32,000 nucleotides of DNA, from NCBI GenBank assembly GCA_934613415.1, contig CAKTSY010000004.1:60001-92000 (forward strand). The letters are read 5' to 3'. Both the position numbers and the translations under genes were made by a program. Source of the DNA: an uncultured Opitutales bacterium (lineage in GTDB: Bacteria > Verrucomicrobiota > Verrucomicrobiia > Opitutales > Intestinicryptomonadaceae). Positions 4,875 through 28,202 of this stretch are shown here, one piece after another; positions within the stretch are counted from its first letter, which is position 1, and each line of letters starts with the position of its first letter. Below the pieces are notes generated by a model. That model was given only the letters and a program-made list of their open reading frames with translations, ran no database searches and was not told the DNA's origin.

Positions 4875-4965
4875 GGAGAGGTGGCGGAGTGGCCGATCGC
4901 GCTGGTTTGCTAAACCGGTGTAGGGAGTTAAACCCCTACCGTGAGTTCGAATCTCATCCTCTCCG
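4875..4965 (+). tRNA. tRNA-Ser (anticodon GCU), CCA not encoded
   Basis: Acceptor GGAGAGG/CCTCTCC. Anticodon arm CTGGT-TTGCTAA-ACCGG. Long variable arm GTAGGG-AGTTAAAC-CCCTAC. T arm GTGAG-TTCGAAT-CTCAT. Discriminator G at 4965. Confidence 0.9.
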
Positions 4966-6450: not shown

Positions 6451-6527
<77 letters not shown>

Positions 6528-6717: not shown

Positions 6718-6753
6718 CAAAAAAAGGCGTTGCCCAACAATTAAAGCAACGCC
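6718..6753 (-). terminator. Rho-independent terminator after the AraC-family gene
   Basis: On the minus strand: GGCGTTGC, 12-nt loop, GCAACGCC (6726-6753), followed by T7 (the complement of the A run ending at 6725). It sits 23 nt beyond the stop at 6776. Confidence 0.6.
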
Positions 6754-6775: not shown

Positions 6776-7654
6776 TTAAACTGCAACATCTCTTTTGGGA
6801 GACGTGCCAAAATAGCGTTTATACTCGCGGCTAAATTGCGTTGGGCTTTCGTAGCCTACGGCGTAGGCTGCGTTGGCAACGGTTTCGTTTTCGGAAATCA
6901 TAAGCCTTTTTGCCTCGTGCAAGCGCAAATTTTTTTGGTATTGAATTGGGCTAATAGACGTAACTTTGCGAAAGTGCCTATGGAAAGTTGTAGGCGCCAT
7001 ATTAACATATTTTGCAAGTTCGTCTATCCTTACGGGTTTTTTAAAGTTTGTTTTAAGCCAGCCTACCGCCTTTGTTATTTGGTTGCTTTGTGTGCCGAAT
7101 GTGCAAAGTTGGCGAACGTGCCTGCCCATTGGGCTAATAAGCAGCCTTGTGTAAATTTCGTTTACAATAACGGGGGCAATAACGGGAATGTCGTCGGGGG
7201 TGTCTAGCAACTTTAGCAGGCGCAAAAAGGCGTCCATTAAGCCCTCGTCGGCATCGGCAACCGCAAGGCCGTTAAAAACCTTGTCGCCCCTAATTTTGTC
7301 GAGCGGCATTTCGGCAATCATTTGCGAAATTTGCTTTAGGTTTAAATCTAGCGAAATTGTAAGCAACGGCTTTTGCGGCGTTGCCTGCGCAATGCAGCTA
7401 GTTCCCGGTATATCTATGCCCGAAACTAGGCACTGGTTTTCGTGATACGCCGTTTCTATATTGCCCGTAATTGCGCGTTTGCTGCCCTGTATAATAAGTA
7501 TAATTTTTGGGGAATAAACGCACCTATTATATCCGTTTTCATGCTCTATTCTATGTGCATAAAAACCCGGAATTGCCGTTTCGACAAAGGCTTCGTGCGG
7601 CAACAATTTTAAGACCAAGCGTTTTAACTGCGAATTTAAACTTGCAATGCCCAT
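6776..7654 (-). CDS. AraC family transcriptional regulator with AraC_N-type (YqhC-like) sensor domain, 292 aa
   Basis: The C-terminal double HTH is typical of AraC/XylS (IDELAKYVNMAPTTFHRHFRKVTSISPIQYQKNLRLHEAKRLM...AVGYESPTQFSREYKRYFGTSP). The N-terminal ~170 aa resembles the non-cupin AraC_N ligand domain. Confidence 0.9.
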   Translation of the reverse strand: MGIASLNSQLKRLVLKLLPHEAFVETAIPGFYAHRIEHENGYNRCVYSPKIILIIQGSKRAITGNIETAYHENQCLVSGIDIPGTSCIAQATPQKPLLTISLDLNLKQISQMIAEMPLDKIRGDKVFNGLAVADADEGLMDAFLRLLKLLDTPDDIPVIAPVIVNEIYTRLLISPMGRHVRQLCTFGTQSNQITKAVGWLKTNFKKPVRIDELAKYVNMAPTTFHRHFRKVTSISPIQYQKNLRLHEAKRLMISENETVANAAYAVGYESPTQFSREYKRYFGTSPKRDVAV

Positions 7655-7744: not shown

Positions 7745-8443
7745 CTAAATTAGCCCGCAGTTTTCCAAAAGGCTTTCATTTGCAAGAATGTCTTTGGTTT
7801 TGCCGAAGGCGGCTACGCTGCCTTTGTTTAAAACCGCGCAATGGCTGCAAAGGTTTAAGGCAAATTCCAAATCGTGGGTGGTCATTAAAATTGTTTTGTT
7901 TAGCGACTTTAAAATGTCGGCGGTTTGCCTTTTGCACTTGCAGTCTAGCAAAGCGGTAGGCTCGTCTAAAAGCAAAACTTCGGGCTGGGCAGCCAAAACC
8001 GAGCAAATTGCCACCCTCTTTTTTTCGCCGTCCGACAAATTTTGTATTGGTCGTTTTGCCAAGTGCATAATCCCATATTCTTCCATAAGTGCGTTTACAT
8101 TTTCAAACGCAATTTGTTGCGGAACTTTGCGGTTTAAAAAGCCGAACGCAATATCTTCTTGCACGGTAGAAAAGAAAAGCTGGTCGTCGCAATTTTGAAA
8201 TACAAGCCCCGCATAACTTCTTATTTTAGACAGGCTATGCTTTTCAACCATAACCGAATTTACATAAATTTTGCCGCTTTTTGGCTGCAAAAGCCCCATA
8301 ATGGAATGCAACAATGTTGTTTTGCCCGCCCCGTTTGCGCCTATAACCGCGCAACATACCCCCTTTTCGATTTCAAGCGAAAGCGAATTTATTGCGGCAA
8401 CATTTCCGCTGCGGCAAACTGTAAGGTTTTCAATTTTTATCAT
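7745..8443 (-). CDS. cbiO: ECF transporter ATPase component (CbiO/NikO/LarO-like), 232 aa
   Basis: ORF 7745..8665 trimmed to ATG 8443 (MIKIENLTVCRSGNVAAINSLSLEIEKGVCCAVIGANGAGKTTLL). It has Walker A, the LSDGEKKRV signature and Walker B LLLDEP. It overlaps the upstream cbiQ stop by 14 nt. Confidence 0.9.
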   Translation of the reverse strand: MIKIENLTVCRSGNVAAINSLSLEIEKGVCCAVIGANGAGKTTLLHSIMGLLQPKSGKIYVNSVMVEKHSLSKIRSYAGLVFQNCDDQLFFSTVQEDIAFGFLNRKVPQQIAFENVNALMEEYGIMHLAKRPIQNLSDGEKKRVAICSVLAAQPEVLLLDEPTALLDCKCKRQTADILKSLNKTILMTTHDLEFALNLCSHCAVLNKGSVAAFGKTKDILANESLLENCGLI

Positions 8444-9206
8444 AAAAAACGCCTTCAATAAAAAGTGGAATATTAAAAAATCTAAAAAGCAAACACAACA
8501 TAGCAAACGCGACAAAAAACACGGTATCTTTAACGGTAAATTTTTGCGTTTGCTGTTTAAAGTGGCGAACATCGAAATTGCGACACTGCATTGCGTTATA
8601 TATTGCATTTGCGCGGGCAAGCGTACGCATAAAAAGGCTTGCCAGCATTGCAGGGTAATGCGCAAATTTTATTTTTGGGTGCATAGGGCTGCGCAGTGCA
8701 TAGGCTTTTGCCATTCTAGCTGCCTCGCTACAAACGCAGTTTAAATAGCGTATTGTAAGCATAATTTGCATAACAACAATACACGGAATTTTAAGCTTTG
8801 CCAAAGCCCCTGCAATGTCGTTTACAGGGGTTGTCTTTGCAAAAATTACGGATACTGCCACGCACAAATACGCCTTTAAAAGCAGTGTAAAAAGCGAAAG
8901 CACCCCAAAACTTACGCCAAAAGAAAAAAGTTTAAAGGCAGTTTTTGTGTCTATAAAAACGTTTGCAGCCCCAGCAAAAAACGCAATGCAAAGCGCGGGC
9001 ATAGATTTCCTTAAAATTTCGCCTTGGCTAATTTTGCACAACGCCCCCAAAAACAGCGGGAAAGCAAAATATATTACAATCCCAAAAGCGTTGTATTTGC
9101 CGAACGAAACAACGCATATAACAAACACAAACAACGCCGCCAATTTTGCCAAGGCGTTGTAAGTAGTATGCATATTGCAGCTTTTTGCCTGCAAGCTACT
9201 TTCCAT
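8430..9206 (-). CDS. cbiQ: ECF transporter transmembrane T component (CbiQ/LarQ-like), 258 aa
   Basis: A polytopic membrane protein positioned between the CbiM and CbiO homologues. ATG 9206 overlaps the cbiM stop by 11 nt. An alternative ATG lies at 9173. Confidence 0.8.
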   Translation of the reverse strand: MESSLQAKSCNMHTTYNALAKLAALFVFVICVVSFGKYNAFGIVIYFAFPLFLGALCKISQGEILRKSMPALCIAFFAGAANVFIDTKTAFKLFSFGVSFGVLSLFTLLLKAYLCVAVSVIFAKTTPVNDIAGALAKLKIPCIVVMQIMLTIRYLNCVCSEAARMAKAYALRSPMHPKIKFAHYPAMLASLFMRTLARANAIYNAMQCRNFDVRHFKQQTQKFTVKDTVFFVAFAMLCLLFRFFNIPLFIEGVFYDKN

Positions 9207-10191
9207 TTAAGTTTGTTTTTGATACAAATTTAAAGGCAAAATACCCGACAAACAAAAACGCCGCCGTTATAAGCGAACCCATTAACCCCGCTACCGATGT
9301 AGACGCCTTGCCGCCCAACATTGGGGTAGAATAGTCGCTAAAAATTGCGGTGTTGTTTGCAATGTTTTTGCTTGCTAAATGGGCTGCGCTTTTTTCTGCC
9401 GCAATTTCGGTTTTCGCGGTGTTTTGCAAAGACCACTCAAGCCCATCGGGCTTTTCGCTAGCGTAAATAGAAAATAGCGAACCAAAAACAACCGCTGCAA
9501 TAGACATAAGCAAAACCGCGCTTTTTTTTGAAGGCATAAATTTGCCTTCGGTTAGCTTGTTAAAAACAAATGCGTTTGAATCTTTAATAGCCAACAACAC
9601 AAAGGCGGTGGCAACGCCCTCTACAAGGCCTATGGCCAAATGTATTGGCTGCATAAACAAAAGAAATGTTTTAAAATCCAGCTCGGTTATGTCGGAACAC
9701 AAAGTTTCTAGCACAACGCAAAACGAGCCGCACTGCAAAGTTAGCACGCAAGACAAAACGCCTGCGGCTATAATCGCAAACTTGCCCCTGCTTTTGCGCA
9801 CAATGGACACAAAAAGCAAGGGGTAAGCAACAAAACACGCAAAAAACGCCATATTAAAAGCGTTGCACCCAAACGCCAAAATTCCGCCGTCGGCAAAAAA
9901 CAACGCCTGTATAAACAGCACCGAACTAAGCGCAATAAAGGCGGGGTATGCCCCCAGTGTTGCTGCCAGCAAAATTCCGCCGCCAATGTGCCCGCTAGAC
10001 CCCGTTGCCGGTATAGAAAAATTAAGCATTTGCGCCGCAAACACAAACGCCGCCATAACGCCCATTAAAGGAATATTTAGCTTGTCGAAATTTTGGGAGG
10101 CCTTTTTTGCCGAATATAGCAGCAAAAGCAAAAAAACAACCCACATTATACCCCCAACCTTTGCGGAAACAAGGGCATCGGACATATGCAT
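9196..10191 (-). CDS. cbiM: Ni/Co ECF substrate-capture component: CbiM/NikM fused to a C-terminal PDGLE (CbiN-like) domain, Lar(MN)-like
   Basis: Start chosen at ATG 10191 so that the N-terminus is MHMSDALVS. CbiM/NikM proteins need an N-terminal Met-His for metal ligation. The alternative ATG at 10212 adds MLNPVLA. The C-terminal ~110 aa contains EKPDGLEWS flanked by two TM helices, which is the PDGLE domain. Confidence 0.85.
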   Translation of the reverse strand: MHMSDALVSAKVGGIMWVVFLLLLLYSAKKASQNFDKLNIPLMGVMAAFVFAAQMLNFSIPATGSSGHIGGGILLAATLGAYPAFIALSSVLFIQALFFADGGILAFGCNAFNMAFFACFVAYPLLFVSIVRKSRGKFAIIAAGVLSCVLTLQCGSFCVVLETLCSDITELDFKTFLLFMQPIHLAIGLVEGVATAFVLLAIKDSNAFVFNKLTEGKFMPSKKSAVLLMSIAAVVFGSLFSIYASEKPDGLEWSLQNTAKTEIAAEKSAAHLASKNIANNTAIFSDYSTPMLGGKASTSVAGLMGSLITAAFLFVGYFAFKFVSKTNLNGK

Positions 10192-10217
10192 TGCAAGAAC
10201 AGGATTTAGCATTTTTT

Positions 10218-10958
10218 TTAACTCCTTAAAATTAAGTGTGCATTAAAGGCGGCTCCAAAACCGTTGTCGATATTTACAACGCTAACCCCGTTTGCGCACG
10301 AATTTATCATTGAAAGCAGCGTCGAAAGTCCGCCAAAATTTGCGCCGTAGCCTACGCTTGTTGGCACTGCAATTACAGGAACTGCAACAAGCCCAGCCAA
10401 AACCGAAGCCAACGCCCCTTCCATTCCGGCAACTGCAATTACAACTTTTGCCTTTCTGATTTCCTCTATATTGCCAAGCAGCCTGTGCAAACCAGCTACC
10501 CCACAATCGAAGTAAGTTTTAGCAGAATCCCCCAAAAAATTTAAAGTAAGCTCGGCTTCCTTTGCAACGGGTATGTCGGAAGTGCCAGCAGTTACAATGG
10601 CAACTTCGCCCAACGAATTTTTCGGGCAGCTTTCGCCAATTTGAATAATTTTTGCAGACTTTTCGTATATGCAATTTTCGAAATTTTTTTGCATCAGTTC
10701 TGCAATTGCTTCGCTTGCGCGTGTTATAAGAACGCCCTTTTCGCGCGCCAAAATTTTGCGGCAAATTTCAAGGCATTGCTCGGGCGTTTTCGAAGCTCCG
10801 TATACGATTTCGCCTACTCCCGTTCTGCGTTTTCTATCGAAGTCTATTTTTGTGTGCCCCATATCGCAGCAAAACAAATTTTCTATTTGTTTGCCCGCGT
10901 TTTGCAAATTAAGGGTGCCGTTTTTGTAGGCGTTTAAAATTTCAAAAATTTCGTTCAT
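10218..10958 (-). CDS. larB: Nickel-pincer cofactor biosynthesis protein LarB (NaAD carboxylase/hydrolase, PurE-like), 246 aa
   Basis: Contains DFDRKRRTGVGEIVYGASKT and VAIVTAGTSDIPVAKEA, and has an AIR-carboxylase-like C-terminal half. Its start forms an ATGA overlap with the larE stop (10955-10958). Confidence 0.9.
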   Translation of the reverse strand: MNEIFEILNAYKNGTLNLQNAGKQIENLFCCDMGHTKIDFDRKRRTGVGEIVYGASKTPEQCLEICRKILAREKGVLITRASEAIAELMQKNFENCIYEKSAKIIQIGESCPKNSLGEVAIVTAGTSDIPVAKEAELTLNFLGDSAKTYFDCGVAGLHRLLGNIEEIRKAKVVIAVAGMEGALASVLAGLVAVPVIAVPTSVGYGANFGGLSTLLSMINSCANGVSVVNIDNGFGAAFNAHLILRS

Positions 10959-11746
10959 ATCTTTACATTCATAGAGCCCGTTTTATAACCTGCCAAATCT
11001 AGCGAGCAGCGTTTAAAACCCAAGTCGACAGCCTCTTTGTTTATCTTGGCACTGTTGCACACAACCTTTTCAAAATCGCATATGTTGCATTCTATCCTTA
11101 CCGAATTTCCGTCGGTTCTTGCCCTTACCTTGCCTATGTTAAGGCTTCGCAAATAGCTTTCAAATTTGTCGATTCTTTGCAGAATGTTTGGTTCTATTTT
11201 TTTGCCGTGTTCAAGCCTTGTAAGCAGGCAGGCATAGGCGGGTTTGTCGGCAACCTCGGGCAGAATTTCGCGTGCAATTTGCCTTATTTGGTCTTTGCCA
11301 ATTCCGCATTCCAAAAACGGGCTTTTTACGCCAAGCTCTTTTAAAGCCTTCATTCCGGGGCGATAATCCGACAAATCGTCGGCGTTTGTACCGTCGCATA
11401 AAACACCTGCGTTTAGCGAAGCTGTTTTGTTTTTAAATTCGCAAAAAATATTTTTTTTGCACAGATAGCAACGTTCGGGCGGGTTGTATAAAATTTCGCT
11501 TGGTATGTTTTCTCTTACAACTTTTACAAGTTTTACCCCAAGCTTTTTGCAAAGATTTTCGGCAAAAGAACATTCGCTTTGCATTGCATAGGGCATAAAG
11601 GCTGTAATTGCAGTGCAGTTTTTTGCCCCCAGTGTTTGCGCGCAAAACGCCAATAGCACAGAGCTGTCTAGCCCGCCCGAAAGCGCAATGCAAACGCTTC
11701 CAAAGCTTTCTATAAGTTTTTTTAAGCTATCTATTTTCGAATTCAT
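10955..11746 (-). CDS. larE: ATP-dependent sulfur transferase LarE (PP-loop ATP pyrophosphatase), 263 aa
   Basis: PP-loop SGGLDSS sits near the N-terminus (VCIALSGGLDSSVLL). Cysteines lie in ERCYLCK and PAYACLLTR. It overlaps the larC stop by 20 nt. Confidence 0.9.
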   Translation of the reverse strand: MNSKIDSLKKLIESFGSVCIALSGGLDSSVLLAFCAQTLGAKNCTAITAFMPYAMQSECSFAENLCKKLGVKLVKVVRENIPSEILYNPPERCYLCKKNIFCEFKNKTASLNAGVLCDGTNADDLSDYRPGMKALKELGVKSPFLECGIGKDQIRQIAREILPEVADKPAYACLLTRLEHGKKIEPNILQRIDKFESYLRSLNIGKVRARTDGNSVRIECNICDFEKVVCNSAKINKEAVDLGFKRCSLDLAGYKTGSMNVKI

Positions 11747-13004
11747 TGCATAGAATTTTTCTTACAACGCCTATAGCAAGCCCCGTTTTGTCTGAAATTT
11801 TTTTGCAGTCGTCAAACTCGGGCTTTGCCTTTGTTTTGCCGTTAAACTCGGCAACTTTAAAATTAACTTCGCCTAACGACGACTTAAATTTTACACATTC
11901 ACGCGGAATACTAAGCCTGTTTGCCTCAACAATTCTAACGCCCAAGGTGGTGGAATTTTCGAAAACAAATTGTGCAACTTTTTCGGCGTCATTTTCGCAA
12001 ACTAGCGCGCACAGCTTTGTGCCCAAGCGCGACTTTTTCATAGCAATAGATTCCCTCCAAACATCTAACGCGCCAACAGAAAACAGCTTTTCGCACAAAT
12101 ACGAAAGGTCTTCGGCTGGCATATCGTCGATATTGCATTCTATAACCGCCATTTTTTCGCGCTTAAATTTGCAATTTGCATCTTCTTGCGTTTCAAGCAG
12201 CGTAATCCTTAAAATGTTGGGCAGTTCGGGAGAATTGCGGTGCCCAATGCCCACGCCGTTGGCTATGATTTTACCGCTAATTCTTTCGGAAAAGCCGTCG
12301 CACAAAGCGGCAATAATTGCCGCCCCCGTAGGCGTTGTGCATTCGTGCATAGCACCGTTAAATTTTACGGGCAGCCCCTTTACTATTTCGGCTGTGGCAG
12401 GGGCAGGAACGGGCATAACTCCATGCGCGCATTTTACAGTGCCGCCCCCAAGCTCTACTGCAGAACATATAAATTTGTCTACACAAAGCATATCGGCGCA
12501 AACGGCTGCTGCAACTATGTCTATTATCGAATCTATTGCGCCTACTTCGTGAAAGCAAACTTCGTCTATATTTTTGTTGTGAACCTTTGCCTCGGCCAGC
12601 GCAATTTTCTCGAATATTTTTAAGGCGTAATTTTTTGCGCGCTGCGAAATACCCGAATTTTCTATAACCTTTTTTATATCGGCATACGAACGGTGAAAAT
12701 GTGAATGCTCGTGAACGTGTTCGCAGTGGAAATGCCCGTAAATGTGCGAATGTATATGCGCGTGCAAATGTTCGTGTTCCGGCGAATGCTCGCTACAGAT
12801 ATGTTCAGATTCGTCTATCACTTCGGCCTTTGTGCCCGAAATTCCGCCGCGCATATCGCGGCTAAACTTTAGCTGCCAACCGCTTAAATTAAGCTTTTGC
12901 AATTCCTTAATAAGTGCGTCTTTGTCTACACCCAAATCCACAAAAGCCGCAATATTCATATCGCCGCTAATGCCCGCAAAACAGTCGTAATATAAAACTT
13001 TCAT
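11727..13004 (-). CDS. larC: Nickel insertion (cyclometallase) protein LarC, single uninterrupted frame, 425 aa
   Basis: ORF 11727..13037 trimmed to ATG 13004 (MKVLYYDCFAGISGDM...), the conserved LarC N-terminus. A His-rich tract EHSPEHEHLHAHIHSHIYGHFHCEHVHEHSHFH is present, and the C-terminal LarC2-like part is in the same frame. Confidence 0.9.
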   Translation of the reverse strand: MKVLYYDCFAGISGDMNIAAFVDLGVDKDALIKELQKLNLSGWQLKFSRDMRGGISGTKAEVIDESEHICSEHSPEHEHLHAHIHSHIYGHFHCEHVHEHSHFHRSYADIKKVIENSGISQRAKNYALKIFEKIALAEAKVHNKNIDEVCFHEVGAIDSIIDIVAAAVCADMLCVDKFICSAVELGGGTVKCAHGVMPVPAPATAEIVKGLPVKFNGAMHECTTPTGAAIIAALCDGFSERISGKIIANGVGIGHRNSPELPNILRITLLETQEDANCKFKREKMAVIECNIDDMPAEDLSYLCEKLFSVGALDVWRESIAMKKSRLGTKLCALVCENDAEKVAQFVFENSTTLGVRIVEANRLSIPRECVKFKSSLGEVNFKVAEFNGKTKAKPEFDDCKKISDKTGLAIGVVRKILCNEFENR

Positions 13005-13055
13005 ATCAAAAAAAACCTGATTGCATACTATGCGCAAAAGCCGTAAATGTCGTTT

Positions 13056-14834
13056 TTATTTTATTGCCGCAAACTTTTCGTCTATAATTTTTATGCATTG
13101 CTCGGGCGTGCCCGCGTTTTTGCATGCGCTTTCCATTGGGCACATTCCGTCGCGCTTTGCATTTTGTATGAAAGGCACAAGGTTTTTATACGAAACATCT
13201 ACCCTTGCCTTCTTTAACATCGCCAAAGCGGGTCGGCTTAAAGTTTCGGCATACAGTTGCGAAACCGCCCCCATTGCAAAAATTGCTGCCGCCGCCTTGC
13301 CAACCGCCTTGTCGGCAACAATTGCGCCCTTTAGCAGTGCGGGCTCGTTTTTGTATATTTTATAAAGTTCGTCTAAGCCGCGCCCTGTGTAGGTGCGAAT
13401 ATCGCCATTGCCAATAACAAGAGTATAGTTCTTGCCCTCTTCGGCAAACTTTGCCTTTACGTCGCCAATTAAAGCCGCCGTACGCTTTAGATTTTTAACA
13501 TAGGCGTCTATGCGGCGAAGCTCTTTGGGAATATCTATACCCTGCGGGCAGTGCGGGCGGCATTGGTCGCAACCCGTGCAGTGACTTGCCTGCCTAAGTT
13601 TTGGGACGGAACGGTCGTAGCCAACAAGGTAGGCGCGGCGCGCCATTGCGTAGTTTTTGTCCAAAGTGCTTTCGGGCGTTAAACGCTCGTTTAGGCATTT
13701 GTTGTAGTGCAGCAAAATTGCGGGAATGTCCAGCGCATACGGGCACGGCATACAATATTTGCAGTCGTTGCAGGGTATGTTGTTAAACTCGAGCATAGTT
13801 TTTGCAATTTTTTCCAAAAATTCAAAATCTTGGTCGGTAAGCGGCTTTAGCGGCGCATAACTGCGAAGGTTGTCTTTTAAATGCTCCATTTTTGCCATGC
13901 CGCTAAGTACGGTTAAAACATTCGGGAAAGTTCCCGCAAAGCGGAATGCCCACGAAGCCACGCTGCGGTCGGGCTCTTTTTGCTTAAATTCGGGAACTAT
14001 TGTATGCGGTATAGACGAAAGCCTGCCGCCCAAAAGGGGCTCCATTATAACGGCGGGAATGTTGCGCTTTTCAAGCTCTCTATACAAATACTCGGCGTTT
14101 GTATTGCTTTTGTTTATCTCTTTTGCGTGCTTCCAGTCTATGTAGTTTAGCTGAATTTGCACAAAGTCCCATTTGTATTCGTCGTGCTTTGAAAGCAGGT
14201 AGTCGAAAACCTTTATGTCGCCATGATACGAAAAGCCGAGATTGCGTATTTTGCCCTTTTTGCGTTCCTCCAACAAAAAGTCTAAAATGCCGTTGTCTAT
14301 ATAGCGTTTTTTTAGTGAGTCCATGCCCGAACCCGTACCTACCGAATGCAAAAGCATATAGTCGATATAGTCCACCCTAAGGTTTTTAAACGAGTCTTCG
14401 TACATCTTAATAGAAGCCTCGCGCGAGTGCGTAGCCGTCGCAAAATTAGAAAGCTTTGTGGCTATAAAATATTTATTGCGCGGGTGTCTGCTTAACGCAA
14501 TGCCTGTCGCCTTTTCGGATTGCCCCCTGCAATATACCGGAGACGTATCAAAATAGTTTACGCCGTGCGCAATGGCATAGTCTACAAGCTCGTTTACGGC
14601 GTTTTGGTCTATAATGCCGCCGGCTTCCCTTGCGGTTTTGCCGTCTATTGAAGGCCAGCGCATACACCCAAAGCCCAAAAGCGAAACCTTTTCTTTTGTC
14701 TTGGGGTTTTCGCGCATAGTCATTTCGCCGTAATTTTCGGTATTTGAATTGTCGGAACACCCAAACAATGCAGCCGAAGCCGCCGTTGCCGAAATTCCCT
14801 TAATAAAAGTTCTTCTTTTAAATTTGTTTTCCAT
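13056..14834 (-). CDS. Predicted Tat-exported lipoprotein: aldo/keto reductase + 2x[4Fe-4S]-type Cys motifs + C-terminal DUF1893 (TM1506-like) domain, 592 aa
   Basis: The N-terminus MENKFKRRTFIKGISATAASAALFGC carries a twin-arginine motif (RRxFIK) and a lipobox (LFGC). AKR motifs are GFGCMRWP, FDTSPVY, ATKL and DYMLLH, so the D-Y-K-H tetrad is present. Fe-S motifs are CNDCKYCMPCP and CTGCDQCRPHCP. The last ~141 aa (13059..13481) match my recollection of DUF1893: ...GAIVADKAVGKAAA...CPME. Confidence 0.85.
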   Translation of the reverse strand: MENKFKRRTFIKGISATAASAALFGCSDNSNTENYGEMTMRENPKTKEKVSLLGFGCMRWPSIDGKTAREAGGIIDQNAVNELVDYAIAHGVNYFDTSPVYCRGQSEKATGIALSRHPRNKYFIATKLSNFATATHSREASIKMYEDSFKNLRVDYIDYMLLHSVGTGSGMDSLKKRYIDNGILDFLLEERKKGKIRNLGFSYHGDIKVFDYLLSKHDEYKWDFVQIQLNYIDWKHAKEINKSNTNAEYLYRELEKRNIPAVIMEPLLGGRLSSIPHTIVPEFKQKEPDRSVASWAFRFAGTFPNVLTVLSGMAKMEHLKDNLRSYAPLKPLTDQDFEFLEKIAKTMLEFNNIPCNDCKYCMPCPYALDIPAILLHYNKCLNERLTPESTLDKNYAMARRAYLVGYDRSVPKLRQASHCTGCDQCRPHCPQGIDIPKELRRIDAYVKNLKRTAALIGDVKAKFAEEGKNYTLVIGNGDIRTYTGRGLDELYKIYKNEPALLKGAIVADKAVGKAAAAIFAMGAVSQLYAETLSRPALAMLKKARVDVSYKNLVPFIQNAKRDGMCPMESACKNAGTPEQCIKIIDEKFAAIK

Positions 14835-17331: not shown

Positions 17332-19413
17332 TTATTTATCCTTGCCTACTATCGTAACAGGCATAATTTTGTATCTTGTACGGCAGTCATCTATATTAAC
17401 TAGCATTGTAGATCTTTGAATTTCTTTTTGAAGCAACCTAGAAAGCTTTAAATTATGCTTTCTCATAGATTTTGCATATTCCATATTCAGCAATAATTTG
17501 TATAAATGCACAAAACCGCCTTTTATAGCGTCATTAAATACTTCAAAAGAATCGCCTTCGACCCCAATTGCAGTTGTTTCGATAGGCAAAACATAGCCCG
17601 TGTTTGTTGTTATTAAAACAAACATATGTCCAGGGATAATAACCAATGACGGATTTAAGCCTATAGACTTGGCAAAAGATGCAAACAATACGCTGCCGTC
17701 TACGCAATTTGCCTGATTAGAATATATAGATTCATCTATAAAGCGAACCCTTTGCGCGAACATAGTACTGTCTCTTGCAACGCTTTCTGTGGCACTACTA
17801 TACACAATTTTCCTATCCCTTAACACGCGCCAAAACGCATACATTTGGTCCATAACGCCCCTATCTCCTAATTGTTCGCCATCAAAATGTTTTATATATC
17901 CCTTTTGTATGGCTTCTTTGCGAAGCTCTTCTATTATAGGGTGGTTTTCGTTAACAAAGGCGGCAAACATACGCTTATAGTCGCGCACACCTTTGCCAAG
18001 CAAGCCGGGACCTGCAAGCAGCACATCGTTTACGGGATTTACTACCGCAGAAACTATAACCTTTTGTGTTTCCTTCTCGTTTACCTTATAGTTGATGGTA
18101 ATCGAAGTTTTATATGGATTTTTTACCTCCATTAGCTTTTTATTATTCCAGCTTATTACGGGGTAAAAATATATTTCTTTTCTGCCGTCTATTTTTACAA
18201 TGCAATCGTTCTCGGTTCTGTTTATTATACCGCACGAACTTTCTATAGTATACGAAAGCTTAATGTTTTCGAACCCATTGGCATCTTCAATATTTAGTTT
18301 AAAATATATAAAAGGATTTCCCGTTCCGTCTATATTTTTCAAATTTACCGCATTCCCATCGGTATACATATAGGGCGAATCGCTTGCAAACAAGTTTACG
18401 TCGGCAAGAAGCAAAGACGGAAAAATATTTTTATTAAATTCAACCCCCGTAGAAACGTCGTAAAAAATTTTTGCAGGGCAAATAGAAGAGAAAAAGCTGC
18501 GGTCTTTTTCGTAGTCGTTTACTTTGCATTTTATATTAAACCTTACCGACTCGGATTTTTCCAAACCTTTCAGGTAGTCGATACTAACGCCTAAAGGCGG
18601 GTTATACACATATTTTTCCGTTCCGTTTAGATGGATTTTTTCGGTAAAATCGCCACCTATAACGTGCTTCGATTCCACATCTATCTTAGCGTTTAACTCT
18701 AAAGTCTTAACCAAATTGGCTCGTCTGGGAACAATTTCTACGTTTATCAATTCGTTTGCGTACTTTTCGCCGGCAAGTATTCTGCCTCCGTATATTTTTG
18801 GAGGAATACTAATGTTTATATCCACTTTTGGCGTGTTGATATACTCTATATCTTCCTTGCACAACAAATTTATGTTCATTATAAACATGCGCTCTTTTTC
18901 GTCCACAAAAATCAAGCGGCCGCCGTCGTTGCTAAGAATTGCACCTCTTACAAACTGCCCTTTTTTGCTTTTCCAAACGCGCATCATATCGTCGCTTACA
19001 AACTCTTTTATTTTTTTGTTTATAATAGCTATTACGCGGTTGCCCTCCTCTACCATATCCACGCCTTCTTGGTAGATTTTTTCGCCTTCTCTTCGCGTGT
19101 TTTCCTGACTAAAATGTTGATAGTGCCCAGTTAACCCGCCACTCATTAACATCTTATAGTCTCTAGCGTTTCGCATTGCATCGCCCTGCTTAATTTTTTC
19201 CTTTCCAGACTTTATAAGTTTGTCTGCTTTTTTTCGGGCACTATACAACATTTCAACACGATTTATGCCGTATATCAACTCTAAGCGTTTATCCTCTTCT
19301 TGTGCGTTGCGAGAAGATTGTTTATAATAACTTCTTGTAGGAGAATAAGCTAGCAAATTGCCCGCAAATAAGAAACATACCAACAAATACACAAGTATTC
19401 TAGATGTGTGCAT
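17332..19413 (-). CDS. Secreted protein of unknown function with an SHD1-like domain and a possible C-terminal transglutaminase-like Cys/His core, 693 aa
   Basis: ORF 17332..19431 starts with TTG, so I prefer ATG 19413 (MHTSRILVYLLVCFLFAGNLLAYS, a signal peptide). MRVWKSKKGQFVRGAILSNDGGRLIFVDEKERMFIMNINLLCKEDIEYIN resembles the SLA1-homology SHD1 domain. The C-terminal QANCVDGSVLFASFAKSIGLNPSLVIIPGHMFV resembles a transglutaminase-core Cys...His arrangement (low certainty). Confidence 0.8.
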   Translation of the reverse strand: MHTSRILVYLLVCFLFAGNLLAYSPTRSYYKQSSRNAQEEDKRLELIYGINRVEMLYSARKKADKLIKSGKEKIKQGDAMRNARDYKMLMSGGLTGHYQHFSQENTRREGEKIYQEGVDMVEEGNRVIAIINKKIKEFVSDDMMRVWKSKKGQFVRGAILSNDGGRLIFVDEKERMFIMNINLLCKEDIEYINTPKVDINISIPPKIYGGRILAGEKYANELINVEIVPRRANLVKTLELNAKIDVESKHVIGGDFTEKIHLNGTEKYVYNPPLGVSIDYLKGLEKSESVRFNIKCKVNDYEKDRSFFSSICPAKIFYDVSTGVEFNKNIFPSLLLADVNLFASDSPYMYTDGNAVNLKNIDGTGNPFIYFKLNIEDANGFENIKLSYTIESSCGIINRTENDCIVKIDGRKEIYFYPVISWNNKKLMEVKNPYKTSITINYKVNEKETQKVIVSAVVNPVNDVLLAGPGLLGKGVRDYKRMFAAFVNENHPIIEELRKEAIQKGYIKHFDGEQLGDRGVMDQMYAFWRVLRDRKIVYSSATESVARDSTMFAQRVRFIDESIYSNQANCVDGSVLFASFAKSIGLNPSLVIIPGHMFVLITTNTGYVLPIETTAIGVEGDSFEVFNDAIKGGFVHLYKLLLNMEYAKSMRKHNLKLSRLLQKEIQRSTMLVNIDDCRTRYKIMPVTIVGKDK

Positions 19414-19438
19414 AAAAAAACCTTTTAGCAAACAGCTA

Positions 19439-19618
19439 CTATTTGCTTTTTTTGGGAGACGAAACCGCTTTTTGCGAGTCGGTATTTTTCGATAATTCGC
19501 GCTCTATGTGCTGGCGAATCTTGCGTTTTAAAATATCGTTGCGGCTGTTCTCGATACTAGTATATGCGTCCTTTAGGCTCTTTAAAATTTCAGCGTCGTT
19601 CAATGGTTTGTCGCTCAT
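19439..19618 (-). CDS. Unannotated small ORF, 59 aa, translationally coupled to the sigma factor gene
   Basis: It falls below the 60-aa ORF-track cutoff. Hand translation: MSDKPLNDAEILKSLKDAYTSIENSRNDILKRKIRQHIERELSKNTDSQKAVSSPKKSK*. Its ATG (19618-19616) overlaps the sigma stop TGA (19617-19615) as ATGA. It ends 26 nt before the next gene start and has no TM segment. Confidence 0.5.
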   Translation of the reverse strand: MSDKPLNDAEILKSLKDAYTSIENSRNDILKRKIRQHIERELSKNTDSQKAVSSPKKSK

Positions 19619-20280
19619 TTTTCAAGTTCCTTTCTGTAGTTTTCCTCTTCGAGTTTCGCCCGAAGCTTCTTTAGCACCCTGTGCACACATGTATCTATAA
19701 CATTGCGACTTACACCCAACATTTCGGCAATTTCGGTCGGTTTTTTACCCTCAAGCTGGCTCAATTCAAAAATAAGGCAGCTTTGCGGCGAGCACGAAAC
19801 CCTTACGCTTTCCCAAGCGTCCATTATAACGCTTTTTTTGTACTCGTCGGCTTCGTCGGCCTCCAGCTTTTCGAAAGGCGAGTTTTCAAGAATAATGCCG
19901 TGTTCGTGTTTTACCATATCTTCCATCAAATCTATAATTTCTATGGAAACCGAACGCTTCTTATTCTTGTTCCTGATATAGTCTATAACTCTGCGCGTTA
20001 TAACCTGTTTTAAAAATCCCCTAAAGCGGTATTTGCCCTTTTCGTACTTGCCGTCTTCAAAAGTTTTTATAACCGATATTACGCTTGCCGAAATAATGTC
20101 TTGAATATCCTCGTCCGACACTCCACTCCAGCCTATGTACTTAAATACATTTACAGCCATAGAATGCATTGTCTGATAGTATATGTCAAAAAACACGCTC
20201 CACGCCTGCTGCCAAACCACTCCTTGTTCGCGGTTTAACATTTGCGAGATAACGCTCTTTGGTGTATCGGGGCACTTCAT
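19615..20280 (-). CDS. ECF-type (group 4) sigma-70 family RNA polymerase sigma factor, 221 aa
   Basis: Region 2-like FRGFLKQVITRRVIDYIR and region 4 HTH LIFELSQLEGKKPTEIAEMLGVSRNVIDTCVHRVLKKLRAKL. It lies directly downstream of a Ser/Thr kinase gene. Confidence 0.85.
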   Translation of the reverse strand: MKCPDTPKSVISQMLNREQGVVWQQAWSVFFDIYYQTMHSMAVNVFKYIGWSGVSDEDIQDIISASVISVIKTFEDGKYEKGKYRFRGFLKQVITRRVIDYIRNKNKKRSVSIEIIDLMEDMVKHEHGIILENSPFEKLEADEADEYKKSVIMDAWESVRVSCSPQSCLIFELSQLEGKKPTEIAEMLGVSRNVIDTCVHRVLKKLRAKLEEENYRKELEK

Positions 20281-20325
20281 ATACTCTGATATTTCGGTAT
20301 TACAAAAAAAATCTTACAGCAAAAG

Positions 20326-21648
20326 CTAAAGAATGCTTAGCCTTTGCGGCCTAATACCGTATCGGTTTGCGCCTTTTTGACCCTTAAATGTCATATACAC
20401 AAAATAGAACACAACCCATATAAGCAGGTCGTATAGCGCAAATCTTATTTGGTGTATGCTGCTTGTTAATGCTATCGAGTTTATTATTCTAAAAAGCACC
20501 ATTGTGCCGAACATACACACGCCAAAAAGCGTGCTTTTGCCCGCATCGTGCAACCGCTTTATTGAAATAGCAAACAGCGGCCAATTAAACAAATAGCCAA
20601 TGTAAAGCCCTATCATATAAAACGAATTCATTACAACGCCGCTGAAATTTATTATAAGGAACAGCAAAATATAAATCAGCGTAAAAGTTTTGCGGTTAAT
20701 TCTGCCTGTTATTGTAAATATAGACGTAGTTTTTTCGGCGTTTGCTAGAACAATTCTGTCTTCTTGCGCAGTATCGTCCGAAAATTCAATGTCGCAATCG
20801 TTTTCGTTTAAATCAATAAAGTTTGCGGCAAAATCGGCTATGCAAAAAAATCTTTCGTTGGTCTTTTCGCGCGTTGCCCTCAGCAAACTGCGGTGAAAAT
20901 GCTCGTATGCCGAAATGTCGCAGGCTGCCATTTTAGATTTACCCTGCGGGAACATATAGCTTGGCCTACCCATTGTGTCCGGCGGGTTGCCGCTTAAAAA
21001 GTAGTATATGGTTCTTGCCAAGCCCCACATATCGGGGTTGCCGTGCGTTTTAAAATACCAGGTTGGCGGAGTGTAGTCGGGCGTGCCCGCCACGCTTGCG
21101 CTTTCGGTATCGGCGCGCATAAGACCAATATCGGCCAAACACGGCTTTGAATTTATAAACAAAATATTGTCGGGTTTTATATCCCTATGCAAAAAGCCCT
21201 TTTTGTTTAAAAAGCCCACCGCCTTAAATATGGGGTTGAAAATTTCCAAAACCTCGTTTGCGGTAAATGTGTCGCCTTTTTTATATCGTTCGTCCACCAA
21301 AGTTTTTAGGGTTTTTGGCTTCCAGTTTTCGTCTACGGGCGAAGACGCGCCCTCGCCGTCGGCAAGCGGCATTATATACGCGAGAGAATTCTCGCCTATT
21401 TTTGCGTCTAAAATCGGAATTATGCTTTCGGGGTTTTCCTTTTGAATGAATTTCTTGTAGCTTTCTATAGACTTTAGTTCTTTTTCGTAGGGCTTTTGCT
21501 CTTTTCTGTAAACTTTTTGCTGCGAATTCGAAACTTTCTTTAAGGCGTAAAAATTGCCCTGTTCGTCTTTTACAAGATACACGCAGCCAAAGCCGCCGCG
21601 GCCAATCTCCCTTACAATGGAAACCCTATCTATCAAACCCTCTTGCAT
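20326..21648 (-). CDS. Hanks-type Ser/Thr protein kinase fused to a C-terminal DUF805 membrane domain, 440 aa
   Basis: Gly loop GRGGFGCVY, catalytic Lys in FYALKKV, HRDIKPDNIL, DIG in place of DFG, and GTPDYTPP. The C-terminal ~130 aa (GRINRKTF...SIKRLHDAGKS...GANRYG) matches the DUF805 pattern and has about 4 TM helices. Confidence 0.9.
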   Translation of the reverse strand: MQEGLIDRVSIVREIGRGGFGCVYLVKDEQGNFYALKKVSNSQQKVYRKEQKPYEKELKSIESYKKFIQKENPESIIPILDAKIGENSLAYIMPLADGEGASSPVDENWKPKTLKTLVDERYKKGDTFTANEVLEIFNPIFKAVGFLNKKGFLHRDIKPDNILFINSKPCLADIGLMRADTESASVAGTPDYTPPTWYFKTHGNPDMWGLARTIYYFLSGNPPDTMGRPSYMFPQGKSKMAACDISAYEHFHRSLLRATREKTNERFFCIADFAANFIDLNENDCDIEFSDDTAQEDRIVLANAEKTTSIFTITGRINRKTFTLIYILLFLIINFSGVVMNSFYMIGLYIGYLFNWPLFAISIKRLHDAGKSTLFGVCMFGTMVLFRIINSIALTSSIHQIRFALYDLLIWVVFYFVYMTFKGQKGANRYGIRPQRLSIL

Positions 21649-24999: not shown

Positions 25000-27162
25000 A
25001 TGAAAATCATAAAGCGCAACGGCTCGGAAGAAAATTTCGAGATTAAAAAGATTTTAACCGCCGTAACAAAGGCAAATCAAACAGTAGAGTTTAAAGACGC
25101 GTTAACTTCGACCCAAATAAAGGAAATAGGCGAATATGTTCAGGGCGTTTGCGACGCCTTAGACAGGGCCTTGTCGGTAGAGGAAATTCAGGATATTGTG
25201 GAAACGCAAATAATGCAAAAAGGCGCGTACGAAGTGGCAAAAAAATACATACGCTACCGCTATGTGCGCAACCTTATCCGCCACGCAAACACAACCGACA
25301 ACAACATTCTTACCCTTATAGAATGCAACAACGAAGAAGTTAAGCAGGAAAATTCTAACAAAAACCCCACCGTTAACAGCGTTCAGCGCGACTATATGGC
25401 GGGCGAAGTTTCCAAAGACATTTCAAAGCGCATACTGCTGCCCCCCGAAGTTATAGAAGCCCACGAAAACGGCATTATACACTTCCACGATATGGACTAT
25501 TTTGCCCAGCATATGCACAACTGCGACTTGGTAAACCTTGAAGATATGCTAAACAACGGCACTGTAATTTCGGGCACCTACATAGACAAGCCCAAAAGCT
25601 TTGCCACAGCCTGCAACATTGCAACCCAAATTATAGCGCAAGTAGCCAGCAACCAATACGGCGGTCAAAGCATAACCCTTACTCATTTGGCACCATTTGT
25701 GCAAATCTCGCGCGAAAAAATTAGCGCATCTTTAAAGGAAGAACTTAACGAAGGCGGCGTTACAATGGAATCCAGCAAGTTCGACGCCATTGTAGAAAAA
25801 CGCCTGCGCGAAGAAATTGCTCGGGGCGTACAGATAATACAGTATCAGGTTGTAACGCTTATGACTACAAACGGGCAAGCTCCATTTGTAACCGTGTTTA
25901 TGTATTTGGGCGAAGCTCGCAACGAACGCGAAAAGAAAGACCTTGCCATGATTATCGAAGAGGTATTAAGGCAAAGGTATAAGGGCGTAAAGAACGAAAA
26001 AGGCGTTTATATTTCGCCCGCGTTCCCCAAGCTTATATACGTTTTGGAAGAAGACACAATGAACGAAAATTCGCCCTACTACTACCTTACGGTTTTGGCG
26101 GCGAAGTGCTCGGCAAAAAGGCTTGTTCCCGACTATATAAGCGAAAAGAAAATGAAAGAGCTAAAGGAAGGCAACTGCTTCCCGATGATGGGCTGCAGGT
26201 CGTGTTTGGCTCCGTGGCGCGACGAAAGCGGCAAATACAAGTTTTACGGCCGCTTTAACCAAGGGGTAGTTACAATAAACCTTGTAGACATTGCATTGAG
26301 CAGCCAAAAAGACGAGAAACTTTTCTGGAAAATTTTCGACGACAGACTTGAAATTTGCTTTAAGGCATTGATGAGCCGCCACAACCGCCTAAAAGGCACG
26401 CTTTCAGACGCAGCCCCTATTCTTTGGCAACATGGAGCAATTGCGCGCTTAAAGAAAGGCGAAACTATCGACAAGCTCTTATACGGAGGCTATTCTTCCA
26501 TTTCGCTGGGCTATGCAGGACTTTGCGAATGCGTAAGGTATATGAAAGGCAAAAGCCATACAGACCCCGAAGCCACGCCCTTTGCCATTGCCGTTATGAA
26601 ACACTTAAACGAAGCGTGTGCTAAGTGGAAAAAGGAGACAAACATAGGCTTTGCCCTATACGGAACGCCTTTGGAAACCACAACATACCGCTTTGCAAAA
26701 TGCCTCCAAAAACGCTTTGGGAAAATAGAGGGCGTAACCGACAAAAACTACATAACAAACAGCTACCACGTTCACGTTACCGAGCCTATCGACGCATTCT
26801 CGAAACTGGCGTTTGAATCGCAATTTCAGGCATTGTCGACAGGCGGTGCAATAAGCTATGTTGAAGTTCCGAATATGCAGAACAACATAGAGGCGGTTTT
26901 GCAGATTATGAAGTTTATTTACGACAATATTATGTATGCCGAGCTTAACACAAAAAGCGACTATTGCCAAGTGTGCGGCTTCGACGGCGAAATAGAAATC
27001 GTAAAAGACGAATCGGGCAAACTTATTTGGAAATGCCCCAAATGCGGAAATACCGACCAGACAAAAATGAACGTTGCGCGCAGAACTTGCGGGTATATCG
27101 GCACTCAGTTTTGGAATCAGGGCAGAACGCAGGAAATTAAAGACCGCGTATTGCATTTGTAG
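25000..27162 (+). CDS. nrdD: Anaerobic ribonucleoside-triphosphate reductase (class III RNR), 720 aa
   Basis: N-terminal ATP-cone (MKIIKRNGSEENFEIKKI). C-terminal Zn-ribbon CQVCG...CPKCG and glycyl-radical motif RRTCGYIG. Confidence 0.95.
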   Translation: MKIIKRNGSEENFEIKKILTAVTKANQTVEFKDALTSTQIKEIGEYVQGVCDALDRALSVEEIQDIVETQIMQKGAYEVAKKYIRYRYVRNLIRHANTTDNNILTLIECNNEEVKQENSNKNPTVNSVQRDYMAGEVSKDISKRILLPPEVIEAHENGIIHFHDMDYFAQHMHNCDLVNLEDMLNNGTVISGTYIDKPKSFATACNIATQIIAQVASNQYGGQSITLTHLAPFVQISREKISASLKEELNEGGVTMESSKFDAIVEKRLREEIARGVQIIQYQVVTLMTTNGQAPFVTVFMYLGEARNEREKKDLAMIIEEVLRQRYKGVKNEKGVYISPAFPKLIYVLEEDTMNENSPYYYLTVLAAKCSAKRLVPDYISEKKMKELKEGNCFPMMGCRSCLAPWRDESGKYKFYGRFNQGVVTINLVDIALSSQKDEKLFWKIFDDRLEICFKALMSRHNRLKGTLSDAAPILWQHGAIARLKKGETIDKLLYGGYSSISLGYAGLCECVRYMKGKSHTDPEATPFAIAVMKHLNEACAKWKKETNIGFALYGTPLETTTYRFAKCLQKRFGKIEGVTDKNYITNSYHVHVTEPIDAFSKLAFESQFQALSTGGAISYVEVPNMQNNIEAVLQIMKFIYDNIMYAELNTKSDYCQVCGFDGEIEIVKDESGKLIWKCPKCGNTDQTKMNVARRTCGYIGTQFWNQGRTQEIKDRVLHL

Positions 27163-27165
27163 AAT

Positions 27166-28017: not shown

Positions 28018-28101
28018 GGTGGGGTATCCAAGTGGTCAAAGGATGCGGACTGTAAATCCGTCCGGTTATGCCGTTCGTGGGTTCGACCCCCACCCCCACC
28101 A
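28018..28101 (+). tRNA. tRNA-Tyr (anticodon GUA), class II, CCA not encoded
   Basis: Acceptor GGTGGGG/CCCCACC. Anticodon arm GCGGA-CTGTAAA-TCCGT. Variable arm CGGT-TAT-GCCG. T arm GTGGG-TTCGACC-CCCAC. Discriminator A at 28101. Confidence 0.88.
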
Positions 28102-28117: not shown

Positions 28118-28202
28118 GCTCAGGTGGTGAAATTGGTAGACACGTACGCTTGAGGTGCGTATGCTTAACGGCGTGCGGGTTCAAGTCCCGCCCTGAGCAC
28201 CA
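28118..28202 (+). tRNA. tRNA-Leu (anticodon GAG), CCA encoded
   Basis: Acceptor GCTCAGG/CCTGAGC. Anticodon arm TACGC-TTGAGGT-GCGTA. Long variable region. T arm GCGGG-TTCAAGT-CCCGC. 3' end A-CCA. It lies 16 nt after tRNA-Tyr, so the two are probably co-transcribed. Confidence 0.88.

Follow-up and report, generated by a model that had tools for sequence, protein, structure and literature searches.

Until now, every enzyme known to use a nickel-pincer cofactor has been cytoplasmic and redox-neutral. These are the LarA racemases and, since 2026, the NphT-type aldo-keto reductases (AKRs) and one cyclodeaminase. AKRs occur in 427 LarC gene neighborhoods that lack LarA (Semersky et al. 2026, Nat Chem, PMC13524815), and one of them, NphT of Alicyclobacillus cellulosilyticus, carries covalently bound nickel-pincer mononucleotide (NPMN) in place of NAD(P)H and moves hydride from one sugar to another. 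In its structure (PDB 9YEB) His144 coordinates the nickel and Lys200 is the thioamide tether, and a K200A substitution abolishes NPMN binding; 34% of the Lar-linked AKRs have both the His and the Lys and 40% have the His only (PMC13524815). In AKRs of the NphT type the cofactor cavity is, moreover, capped and leaves no room for the AMP moiety. The main text of that paper does not mention Fe-S clusters, ferredoxins, fusions, signal peptides or twin-arginine motifs. Here we describe an AKR gene from an uncultured Opitutales bacterium, located in a 32,000-nucleotide stretch of contig CAKTSY010000004.1 (the window), whose product carries a twin-arginine leader, an Fe-S domain and a DUF1893 domain, and which lies between a gene for a membrane polyferredoxin and the genes larC, larE and larB. 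An exported nickel-pincer-type AKR wired by Fe-S clusters to the respiratory chain, as we propose this protein to be, appears not to have been described before.

Parts of the locus also recall other described systems. TM1506 of Thermotoga maritima (1VK9), the founder of the DUF1893 family, is a standalone cytoplasmic protein that is ADP-ribosylated on Asp56 and holds an unknown ligand in a conserved pocket, and TM1506 genes are found in operons with an AKR bearing a Cys-rich extension and with a protein of five transmembrane (TM) segments, the 5TM protein (Iyer et al. 2011, PMC3239186). The NapH-NapG fusion of the delta-proteobacterium MLMS-1 is inserted by both the Sec and the twin-arginine translocation (Tat) machineries and carries its C-terminal clusters on the periplasmic side (Tooke et al. 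2017, PMC5449189).

A first-pass annotation of the window, made from the sequence alone, had assigned AKR, Fe-S and DUF1893 domains to the target protein, and Pfam bears these out. PF00248 Aldo_ket_red matches residues 53-344 with 130.6 bits against a cutoff of 24 (E 8e-38) and PF08973 TM1506/DUF1893 matches residues 467-587 with 131 bits against 27 (E 3e-38); the 4Fe-4S dicluster models are weak at residues 355-434, and the sole one over its cutoff, Fer4_17, is marginal (23.8 against 22.2). Invariance was assessed in an alignment of 27 tri-domain homologs of 55-74% identity. The catalytic tetrad is intact, as the annotation had read it, and D96, Y101, K127 and H163, equivalent to D47, Y52, K75 and H106 of NphT, are invariant in all 27. 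Equally invariant are all eight cysteines of CNDCKYCMPCP, spaced 2-2-2, and of the second cluster motif CTGCDQCRPHCP, which is canonical, as well as D508, C565 and P566 of the DUF1893 domain, where K509 is kept in at least 90% of the homologs. The C-terminal 121 residues have VADK where TM1506 has VIDK and retain its CP motif, and D508 is the counterpart of the ADP-ribosylated Asp of TM1506, a mapping that assumes the usual 12-residue expression tag. The AlphaFold2 model of the target has a predicted local distance difference test score of 81.4 overall and below 50 for residues 1-31.

Residues 1-26, MENKFKRRTFIKGISATAASAALFGC, contain the Tat motif KRRTFIK, followed by an h-region, GISATAASAALF, with a mean hydropathy of 1.39 and a lipobox, LFGC. 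That the leader joins a twin-arginine motif to a lipobox Cys had been noted before, and the alignment agrees: R7, R8, F10 and C26 are invariant. Among the best 120 of at least 8000 protein-search matches, the sample used for all homolog motif counts, RRxF[LFIVM] is present in 118, and 117 have the twin arginine followed 8-32 residues on by a small residue and Cys. The stop codon of the upstream polyferredoxin gene lies 30 nt before the target ATG and there is no alternative upstream start; with a leader kept throughout the family and the preceding gene ending so close, a start further downstream can be dismissed, and a misassigned start codon is ruled out. Two observations speak against export. 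Tat-signal hidden Markov models (HMMs) remain below threshold on the target (PF10518, 14.9 bits against 22.7; TIGR01409, 12.7 against 16.7), so that this part of the earlier proposal did not gain HMM backing while the motif and the start of the leader stood, and the lipobox has a non-canonical Phe at -2. A precomputed PF10518 match is present on several homologs, and the lipoboxes of relatives read LAGC, LAAC, LVAC and IASC. An Fe-S-cluster-binding passenger is the classic reason for Tat export, and a TatC gene adjoins the module in 19 reference loci (here and below, the best 80 of more than 598 loci, from a scan of one genome per species). We consider the target very probably a Tat-exported lipoprotein, as judged from its leader. 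A literature search for a Tat-exported Fe-S AKR found none. Glucose-fructose oxidoreductase of Zymomonas is a Tat-exported periplasmic enzyme carrying non-dissociable NADP; it has a Rossmann fold, no Fe-S clusters and no membrane partner.

The polyferredoxin gene lies directly upstream on the same strand. Four TM segments of its product are strongly hydrophobic and follow the positive-inside rule; on the side predicted to be cytoplasmic lie two CxxxCP and two 4-Cys motifs. An internal Tat motif, RRGFF, is found at residue 300 (SSSRRGFFATLFTVAASATANA) ahead of a fifth segment of weak hydrophobicity, and a C-terminal part with four further 4Fe-4S motifs is predicted to be periplasmic. This is the pattern of the NapGH quinol dehydrogenase and of the dual Sec/Tat MLMS-1 fusion: a NapH-like unit of four Sec-type TM segments with CxxxCP and two cytoplasmic clusters, a twin arginine before a weak fifth TM segment, and a four-cluster periplasmic domain. 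Similarity to the NCBIfam NapG model at residues 297-488 (74.8 bits against a cutoff of 269) and to the NapH model at residues 165-275 (67.3 against 234) is below the equivalog cutoffs, and the partner gene specifies an AKR-FeS lipoprotein in place of a nitrate or nitrous-oxide reductase system. The architecture of the polyferredoxin is NapGH-like, yet by these scores it is no equivalog of NapG or NapH. Of the 80 reference loci, 73 have it next to the AKR gene, as do all close relatives examined, and the internal twin arginine is kept in ~71 of 77 orthologs. Because adjacency and twin-arginine motifs are kept across loci, we regard the polyferredoxin and the putatively exported AKR-FeS lipoprotein as a conserved unit, in which the Tat motifs on both proteins are predicted to put the AKR and one end of the Fe-S wire in the same compartment. 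These features argue strongly that the polyferredoxin is the electron-transfer partner of the target.

On the other side of the target gene, LarC begins 51 nt past the stop codon, and a terminator scan calls none in between. LarE, LarB, the components of a CbiMQO nickel/cobalt transporter and an AraC_N-type regulator follow on the same strand (Table), and a hairpin directly beyond the regulator gene is the probable end of the transcription unit. An Rfam scan of the window returned only tRNAs at gathering score and no riboswitch or other RNA regulator, and a promoter consensus scan was at background level. No LarA was found within the 32-kb window. The gap at 13005-13055 (minus strand) contains a 4-bp hairpin, GCAT-AGT-ATGC, with an eight-T run a few bases on; too weak for the terminator scan, it could be a partial attenuator between enzyme and cofactor genes. 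LarC has a His-rich insert, EHSPEHEHLHAHIHSHIYGHFHCEHVHEHSHFH, at 12700-12800 (minus strand), plausibly a nickel-binding stretch, the counterpart of which is masked as Ns in L086.

Table. Features of the target gene and its transcription unit, in window coordinates
Feature	Position	Strand	Basis or remark
Target gene (leader, AKR, 2x[4Fe-4S], DUF1893)	13056..14834	-	ATG at 14834 to stop at 13056, 592 aa
Twin-arginine leader KRRTFIK and lipobox LFGC	14757..14834	-	Cys26 is the predicted lipidated first mature residue
AKR TIM barrel, residues 53-344, tetrad D96/Y101/K127/H163	13803..14678	-	Pfam; 27-homolog alignment; hhalign to NphT family 99.2%
Fe-S domain, residues 355-434, CNDCKYCMPCP ... CTGCDQCRPHCP	13533..13772	-	Pfam; 8 invariant Cys; two [4Fe-4S] predicted
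DUF1893/TM1506 domain, residues 467-587, deaminase-like fold	13074..13436	-	Pfam; D508 (with K509), C565-P566; 1vk9 E 1.6e-19
His204 codon in LGFSYHG	14223..14225	-	aligned with nickel-coordinating His144 of NphT (PDB 9YEB)
Glu265 codon in IMEPLLGG	14040..14042	-	position of covalent-tether Lys200 of NphT; Lys absent
NapH-NapG-fusion-type membrane polyferredoxin, 505 aa	14865..16382	-	Pfam Fer4_5 x2 and Fer4 models; hydropathy; motifs
LarC (LarC1 and LarC2 fused, His-rich insert), nickel-inserting cyclometallase	11727..13004	-	Ni_insertion E 2e-135; NCBIfam LarC1 and LarC2 over cutoff
LarE, ATP-dependent sulfur transferase	10955..11746	-	TIGR00268 250.7 bits, cutoff 150
LarB, nicotinic acid adenine dinucleotide (NaAD) carboxylase/hydrolase	10218..10958	-	NF033503 282.7 bits, cutoff 175
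CbiM and PDGLE (CbiN-like), S-component of Ni/Co energy-coupling factor (ECF) transporter	9196..10212	-	Pfam, NCBIfam
CbiQ, transmembrane component	8430..9206	-	Pfam
CbiO ATPase, maximal open reading frame	7745..8665	-	Pfam; real start probably ~8443 (232 aa, as called in L001)
AraC_N-type transcription regulator, 3' end of block	6776..7654	-	same regulator type near module in L003, L006, L087, L176
Strong terminator-like hairpin, 10-bp stem and T-run	6726..6753	-	directly 3' of AraC gene; sole strong one on minus strand; probable end of transcription unit

We compared the window with other loci that bear the family (labeled L001 and so on), judging Lar linkage by gene neighborhood. The same Lar block is present in L001/L002, where the target is 98% identical, in L176-L178 (94.6%), which were found from the LarC side and have different upstream flanks, and in L086 (74%), L091 (74%) and L092/L093 (73%). 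In L091-L093 a NadD gene (over the TIGR00482 cutoff) is inserted between target and LarC, with gene ends that overlap or abut; in L095, a sister of the Lar-linked clade, NadD stays beside the AKR and no Lar genes come after (coordinates L091:4437-5063, L092:11152-11757, L095:11749-12390). NadD makes NaAD, the substrate of LarB, and the operon copy could be a source of NaAD for LarB, or it could convert the pincer mononucleotide to the dinucleotide NPAD by adenylylation. In the sister lineages this second-copy-like NadD gene shows translational coupling with the 3' end of the gene for AKR-FeS-DUF1893; the window has no NadD. In the deeper lineage L004, where the target is 62% identical, a standalone 186-aa LarC2-domain open reading frame (L004:7798-8358), which covers just positions 236-374 of the Ni_insertion profile, is the immediate upstream neighbor of the polyferredoxin, and LarC1, LarE and LarB are not nearby.

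NphT is the third-best solved-structure match of the target. The two share the AKR TIM (triosephosphate isomerase) barrel and the D-Y-K-H tetrad, and the genes of both lie beside larB, larC and larE without larA. With phmmer, NphT IGITGHGH pairs with target LGFSYHGD. A three-residue numbering offset was confirmed on D47, Y52, K75 and H106 of NphT, and an NphT-family alignment built from 20 homologs reproduces every residue named in PMC13524815. Aligned by hhalign, the two families match with a probability of 99.2%, target residues 35-264 corresponding to NphT 1-199, and S202 is paired with T142, H204 with the nickel ligand H144, and M264 with I199, both hydrophobic. The motif LGFS[YF]HG, and with it H204, is present in 120 of 120 homologs; its position is a gap in the phmmer alignment for the L-galactose dehydrogenases of plants, which are the closest canonical relatives. 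The residue after M264, at the position of Lys200, is E265, and MEPLLGG is found in 119 of the 120. The target thus has the His and the gene context of nickel-pincer AKRs and lacks the Lys, which by this alignment places it in the 'His-only' class of Lar-linked AKRs. In other respects it is unlike NphT, a cytoplasmic monomer that disproportionates sugars without net redox change: identity is ~23%, the target is twice the size, and it has a Tat-lipoprotein leader, two predicted [4Fe-4S] clusters, a DUF1893 domain and a membrane polyferredoxin as partner. LarA-superfamily proteins, like the target presumably, use the LarB/LarE/LarC cofactor with a His ligand to nickel, but they are cytoplasmic racemases and epimerases of unrelated fold without Fe-S clusters.

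Because H204 occupies the NphT ligand position and the larC, larE and larB genes adjoin the target without a larA, we think the odds somewhat favor use of a nickel-pincer cofactor by the target. The first-pass annotation had found it odd that a member of an enzyme class dependent on soluble NAD(P)H should be anchored outside the cytoplasm. That puzzle is real; the flanking polyferredoxin and the LarCEB and CbiMQO genes had gone unnoticed, and the genes and motifs considered here suggest that its answer is probably a nickel-pincer cofactor bound in the AKR domain. The target is best grouped with the nickel-pincer-type AKRs, as a His-only member that is (by prediction) exported and lipid-anchored, fused to Fe-S and DUF1893 domains, and paired with a polyferredoxin. 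Foldseek comparison of the target model with a copy of the PDB lacking 9YEB retrieved generic AKRs only and did not discriminate cofactor type, and a PDB search with the C-terminal half-barrel of the target gave no match to the C-terminal half of NphT. The small AKR beside the module in L003 was ruled out as relevant, being a canonical NADPH enzyme (GVSNF, IPKS; 4mhb E 1e-124).

Several points weigh against a nickel-pincer cofactor. The covalent-tether Lys of NphT is replaced by an invariant Glu, and we know of no 'His-only' AKR that has been experimentally proven to bind the cofactor so far. Distant cytoplasmic AKR-FeS proteins with no Lar genes within 8 kb also have the GFSxHG His, so this residue may have another role. 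No nickel-pincer enzyme is known to us that trades electrons with Fe-S clusters, all known ones being redox-neutral. Finally, Lar genes are nearby in none of six other close lineages, none of the 80 reference loci and none of 80 metagenome loci anchored on DUF1893; the Lar-linked lineages form one clade on the tree, and the pattern is that of one evolutionary event plus one partial one.

In an alternative that we regard as improbable, though it is the strongest of those considered, the target is an exported, polyferredoxin-coupled AKR with tightly bound NAD(P), carried along through Tat as in the Zymomonas enzyme, or with no nicotinamide at all, and the Lar and CbiMQO genes serve a LarA homolog elsewhere, having become neighbors through a lineage-specific rearrangement. 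Lar adjacency confined to one clade and absent from ~166 other family or DUF1893 loci fits this reading; the tether Lys is absent; the fold is a generic AKR barrel; and, besides the tetrad, positions of the S202, Q228 and G312 type, which bind nicotinamide and phosphate in canonical AKRs, are conserved. Yet start and stop codons overlap among target, NadD and LarC in L091-L093 and the Lar block is retained where the flanks have changed, both of which argue for functional coupling, and the operon offers no other candidate user of the cofactor. An invariant His exactly at the nickel-ligand position, where the plant enzymes have a gap, is also not expected from a conventional AKR. Moreover, re-oxidation of NAD(P)H by Fe-S clusters requires a flavin, and a flavin domain is absent.

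Building on the architecture, the conserved motifs, the operon, the position of His204 and the polyferredoxin partnership, we infer a mechanism that adds to them export, pincer binding, a direction of electron flow and a substrate; we give even odds to the whole, a Tat-exported, lipid-anchored nickel-pincer AKR wired through the polyferredoxin to the quinone pool. In the cytoplasm, the apoprotein would take up two [4Fe-4S] clusters and the nickel-pincer nucleotide, NPMN or possibly the dinucleotide NPAD, which would be bound non-covalently with its nickel ligated by His204 and would replace dissociable NAD(P)H. The cofactor would be made by LarB, LarE and LarC from the genes immediately downstream, with nickel imported by the co-transcribed CbiMQO and, in the sister lineages, with precursor NaAD that the operon NadD can provide. 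The folded holoenzyme would then be exported by Tat and lipidated at Cys26, and would face the periplasm. There the D-Y-K-H tetrad would handle acid-base chemistry on an alcohol or carbonyl substrate, and the bound pincer cofactor would accept or donate hydride; being permanently bound, it would allow the AKR to dispense with a pool of soluble NAD(P)H. Electrons would pass between the two [4Fe-4S] clusters of the target and the periplasmic clusters of the polyferredoxin, and thence to or from the quinone pool.

The potential of menaquinone is about -0.07 V and those of alcohol/aldehyde and aldose/lactone couples are about -0.2 to -0.4 V; on these standard potentials, substrate oxidation with menaquinone reduction would be the favorable direction for typical AKR substrates. 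The substrate might be a sugar or a related small periplasmic carbonyl compound, a guess made with low confidence: the nearest relatives, L-galactose dehydrogenase (an aldose 1-dehydrogenase) and NphT, act on sugars, the hosts are glycan degraders, and in the Opitutales-like clade the module comes with a regulator of the AraC type.

A quite unlikely variant keeps the pincer cofactor but has the Fe-S domain and polyferredoxin maintain the bound cofactor or nickel in an active state in the oxidizing periplasm, with catalysis confined to redox-neutral hydride shuttling such as periplasmic sugar disproportionation or epimerization. Every characterized nickel-pincer enzyme is redox-neutral, NphT, the nearest characterized nickel-pincer relative, disproportionates sugars, and hydride chemistry is not obviously compatible with one-electron Fe-S chemistry. 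A ten-cluster chain to the quinone pool, however, kept in ~90% of loci, would be costly for occasional repair, and it resembles respiratory wiring of the NapGH type. A candidate mediator occurs in some relatives: a Flavodoxin_4 protein of ~188 aa is encoded near the module in seven loci (L003:4472-5035, L087:7157-7723, L088:3156-3722, L006, L019, L040 and L046), and in the L003 representative the N-terminus resembles a signal peptide. Export of the protein, should it occur, could let its flavin mediate between hydride and one-electron chemistry. Near the module in L004 and L087 there are also genes for DUF4405 membrane proteins.

If the proposed mechanism is true, nickel-pincer chemistry takes in net redox reactions and reaches the cell envelope, the working of an 'NAD(P)H enzyme' where NAD(P)H is absent is explained, and a very abundant, uncharacterized pair of proteins from human and animal gut microbiota gains a testable cofactor and electron path. 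The window operon brings together the enzyme, its partner, nickel-pincer nucleotide synthesis, nickel uptake and a regulator, a ready-made expression cassette.

Within this scheme the DUF1893 domain would be an optional nucleotide-binding accessory; it is carried by about half of the exported family, and its role here could be nucleotide binding, cofactor loading or salvage, or regulation. DUF1893 is linked to AKR-FeS genes in 26 of the 80 DUF1893-anchored metagenome loci, in distant lineages. An independent tie of standalone DUF1893 to the nickel-pincer pathway was ruled out, since none of these 80 loci has Lar genes. A ~170-aa 5TM protein, weakly like ECF S-components, is encoded in 29 of the 80 reference loci, nearly all of them DUF1893-containing, and in 21 of the 80 metagenome loci, and 6 reference loci have a small TonB-dependent receptor as a neighbor. 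Examples of reference loci with extra neighbors (5TM, TatC, TonB-dependent receptor) are L029:16077-16589, L040:11768-13666 and L047:1884-2678. A second solved 'DUF1893 domain-containing protein' besides 1VK9 is PDB 9e9a_A (150 aa), for which no describing paper was found. That DUF1893 should be the core of the system, as proposed in Iyer et al. 2011, a sensor binding NAD or ADP-ribose or an ADP-ribosyltransferase by which transport via the 5TM protein is regulated and to which the AKR-FeS part gives only redox input, is very unlikely: the ADP-ribosylated Asp56 and pocket ligand of TM1506, the invariant D508 with its nearly invariant K509, and the 5TM gene that follows DUF1893-containing genes fit such a role, but about half of the exported family lacks DUF1893 and still has leader, AKR, Fe-S domain and polyferredoxin, which makes it accessory, the window has no 5TM gene, and a periplasmic site precludes sensing of the cytoplasmic NAD pool.

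The architecture had been thought unusual, and in frequency it is not: the core of leader, AKR and Fe-S domain occurs at more than 598 reference-genome loci. Nor is the three-domain fusion a rarity, for it recurs in dozens of 90% clusters and makes up about half of the family. The best 120 protein matches comprise 61 tri-domain proteins (~590-620 aa) and 58 two-domain proteins with leader, AKR and Fe-S domain (~465 aa), the two kinds being ~68% identical across their common part. Almost all of the best 80 reference loci are from gut Bacteroidales metagenome-assembled genomes (MAGs) and isolates. The closest reference match of the target, at 71%, is from an Opitutales MAG, and the window LarC has 85% identity to the annotated LarC of an Opitutales MAG; these matches point to a gut member of the Opitutales (Verrucomicrobiota) as the most probable source of the window. 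In Bacteroidales, a LarC annotation in one MAG establishes no more than that some members encode LarC, and a literature search on Lar gene distribution in Bacteroidetes found nothing.

The distant cytoplasmic AKR-FeS proteins ('predicted oxidoreductase', ~375 aa, PMC3239186) share with the target the core of AKR and two Cys motifs, GFSxHG, MEPLxGG and a partnership with DUF1893, which is standalone beside them. They are 26-37% identical to the target and, unlike it, have no leader, no polyferredoxin neighbor and no nearby Lar genes. As Iyer et al. 2011 had reported the operon linkage, the AKR-DUF1893 fusion is a known gene association made covalent. A fusion in the reverse order, DUF1893-AKR-FeS, is encoded in L146 (L146:6478-7992; 504 aa, no leader), and this gene model shows the AKR-FeS and DUF1893 modules to have been joined independently in both orders.

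We tentatively extend the reading to the whole GFSxHG AKR-FeS family, thousands of proteins in human-gut Bacteroidales together with the cytoplasmic Firmicutes forms. All might be nickel-pincer enzymes, the exported ones being the first to be wired to a respiratory chain, though we doubt rather than expect this. Equally doubtful is the function that would follow for the pincer cofactor, that of a transducer from hydride to single electrons, normally the role of a flavin, which would pass electrons from substrate to menaquinone via ~10 Fe-S clusters. On that family-wide reading, DUF1893, the 5TM protein and the TonB-dependent proteins would be candidates for nucleotide-cofactor handling or salvage.

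The remainder of the window holds genes of other kinds. A 699-aa open reading frame without a Pfam match (17332-19431, minus strand) is 98% conserved in L001/L002 and absent from the equivalent place in L176/L177. At 19615-21648 (minus strand) lies a gene for an extracytoplasmic-function-type sigma factor, followed by one for a Ser/Thr protein kinase with a fused DUF805 membrane domain. Genes for NrdD, the anaerobic ribonucleotide reductase, and for its activase (Fer4_12/radical SAM) lie at 25000-27705 (plus strand), consistent with an anaerobic lifestyle. Five tRNA genes, all on the plus strand, lie at 2738-2824, 4875-4965, 6451-6524, 28018-28101 and 28118-28199.

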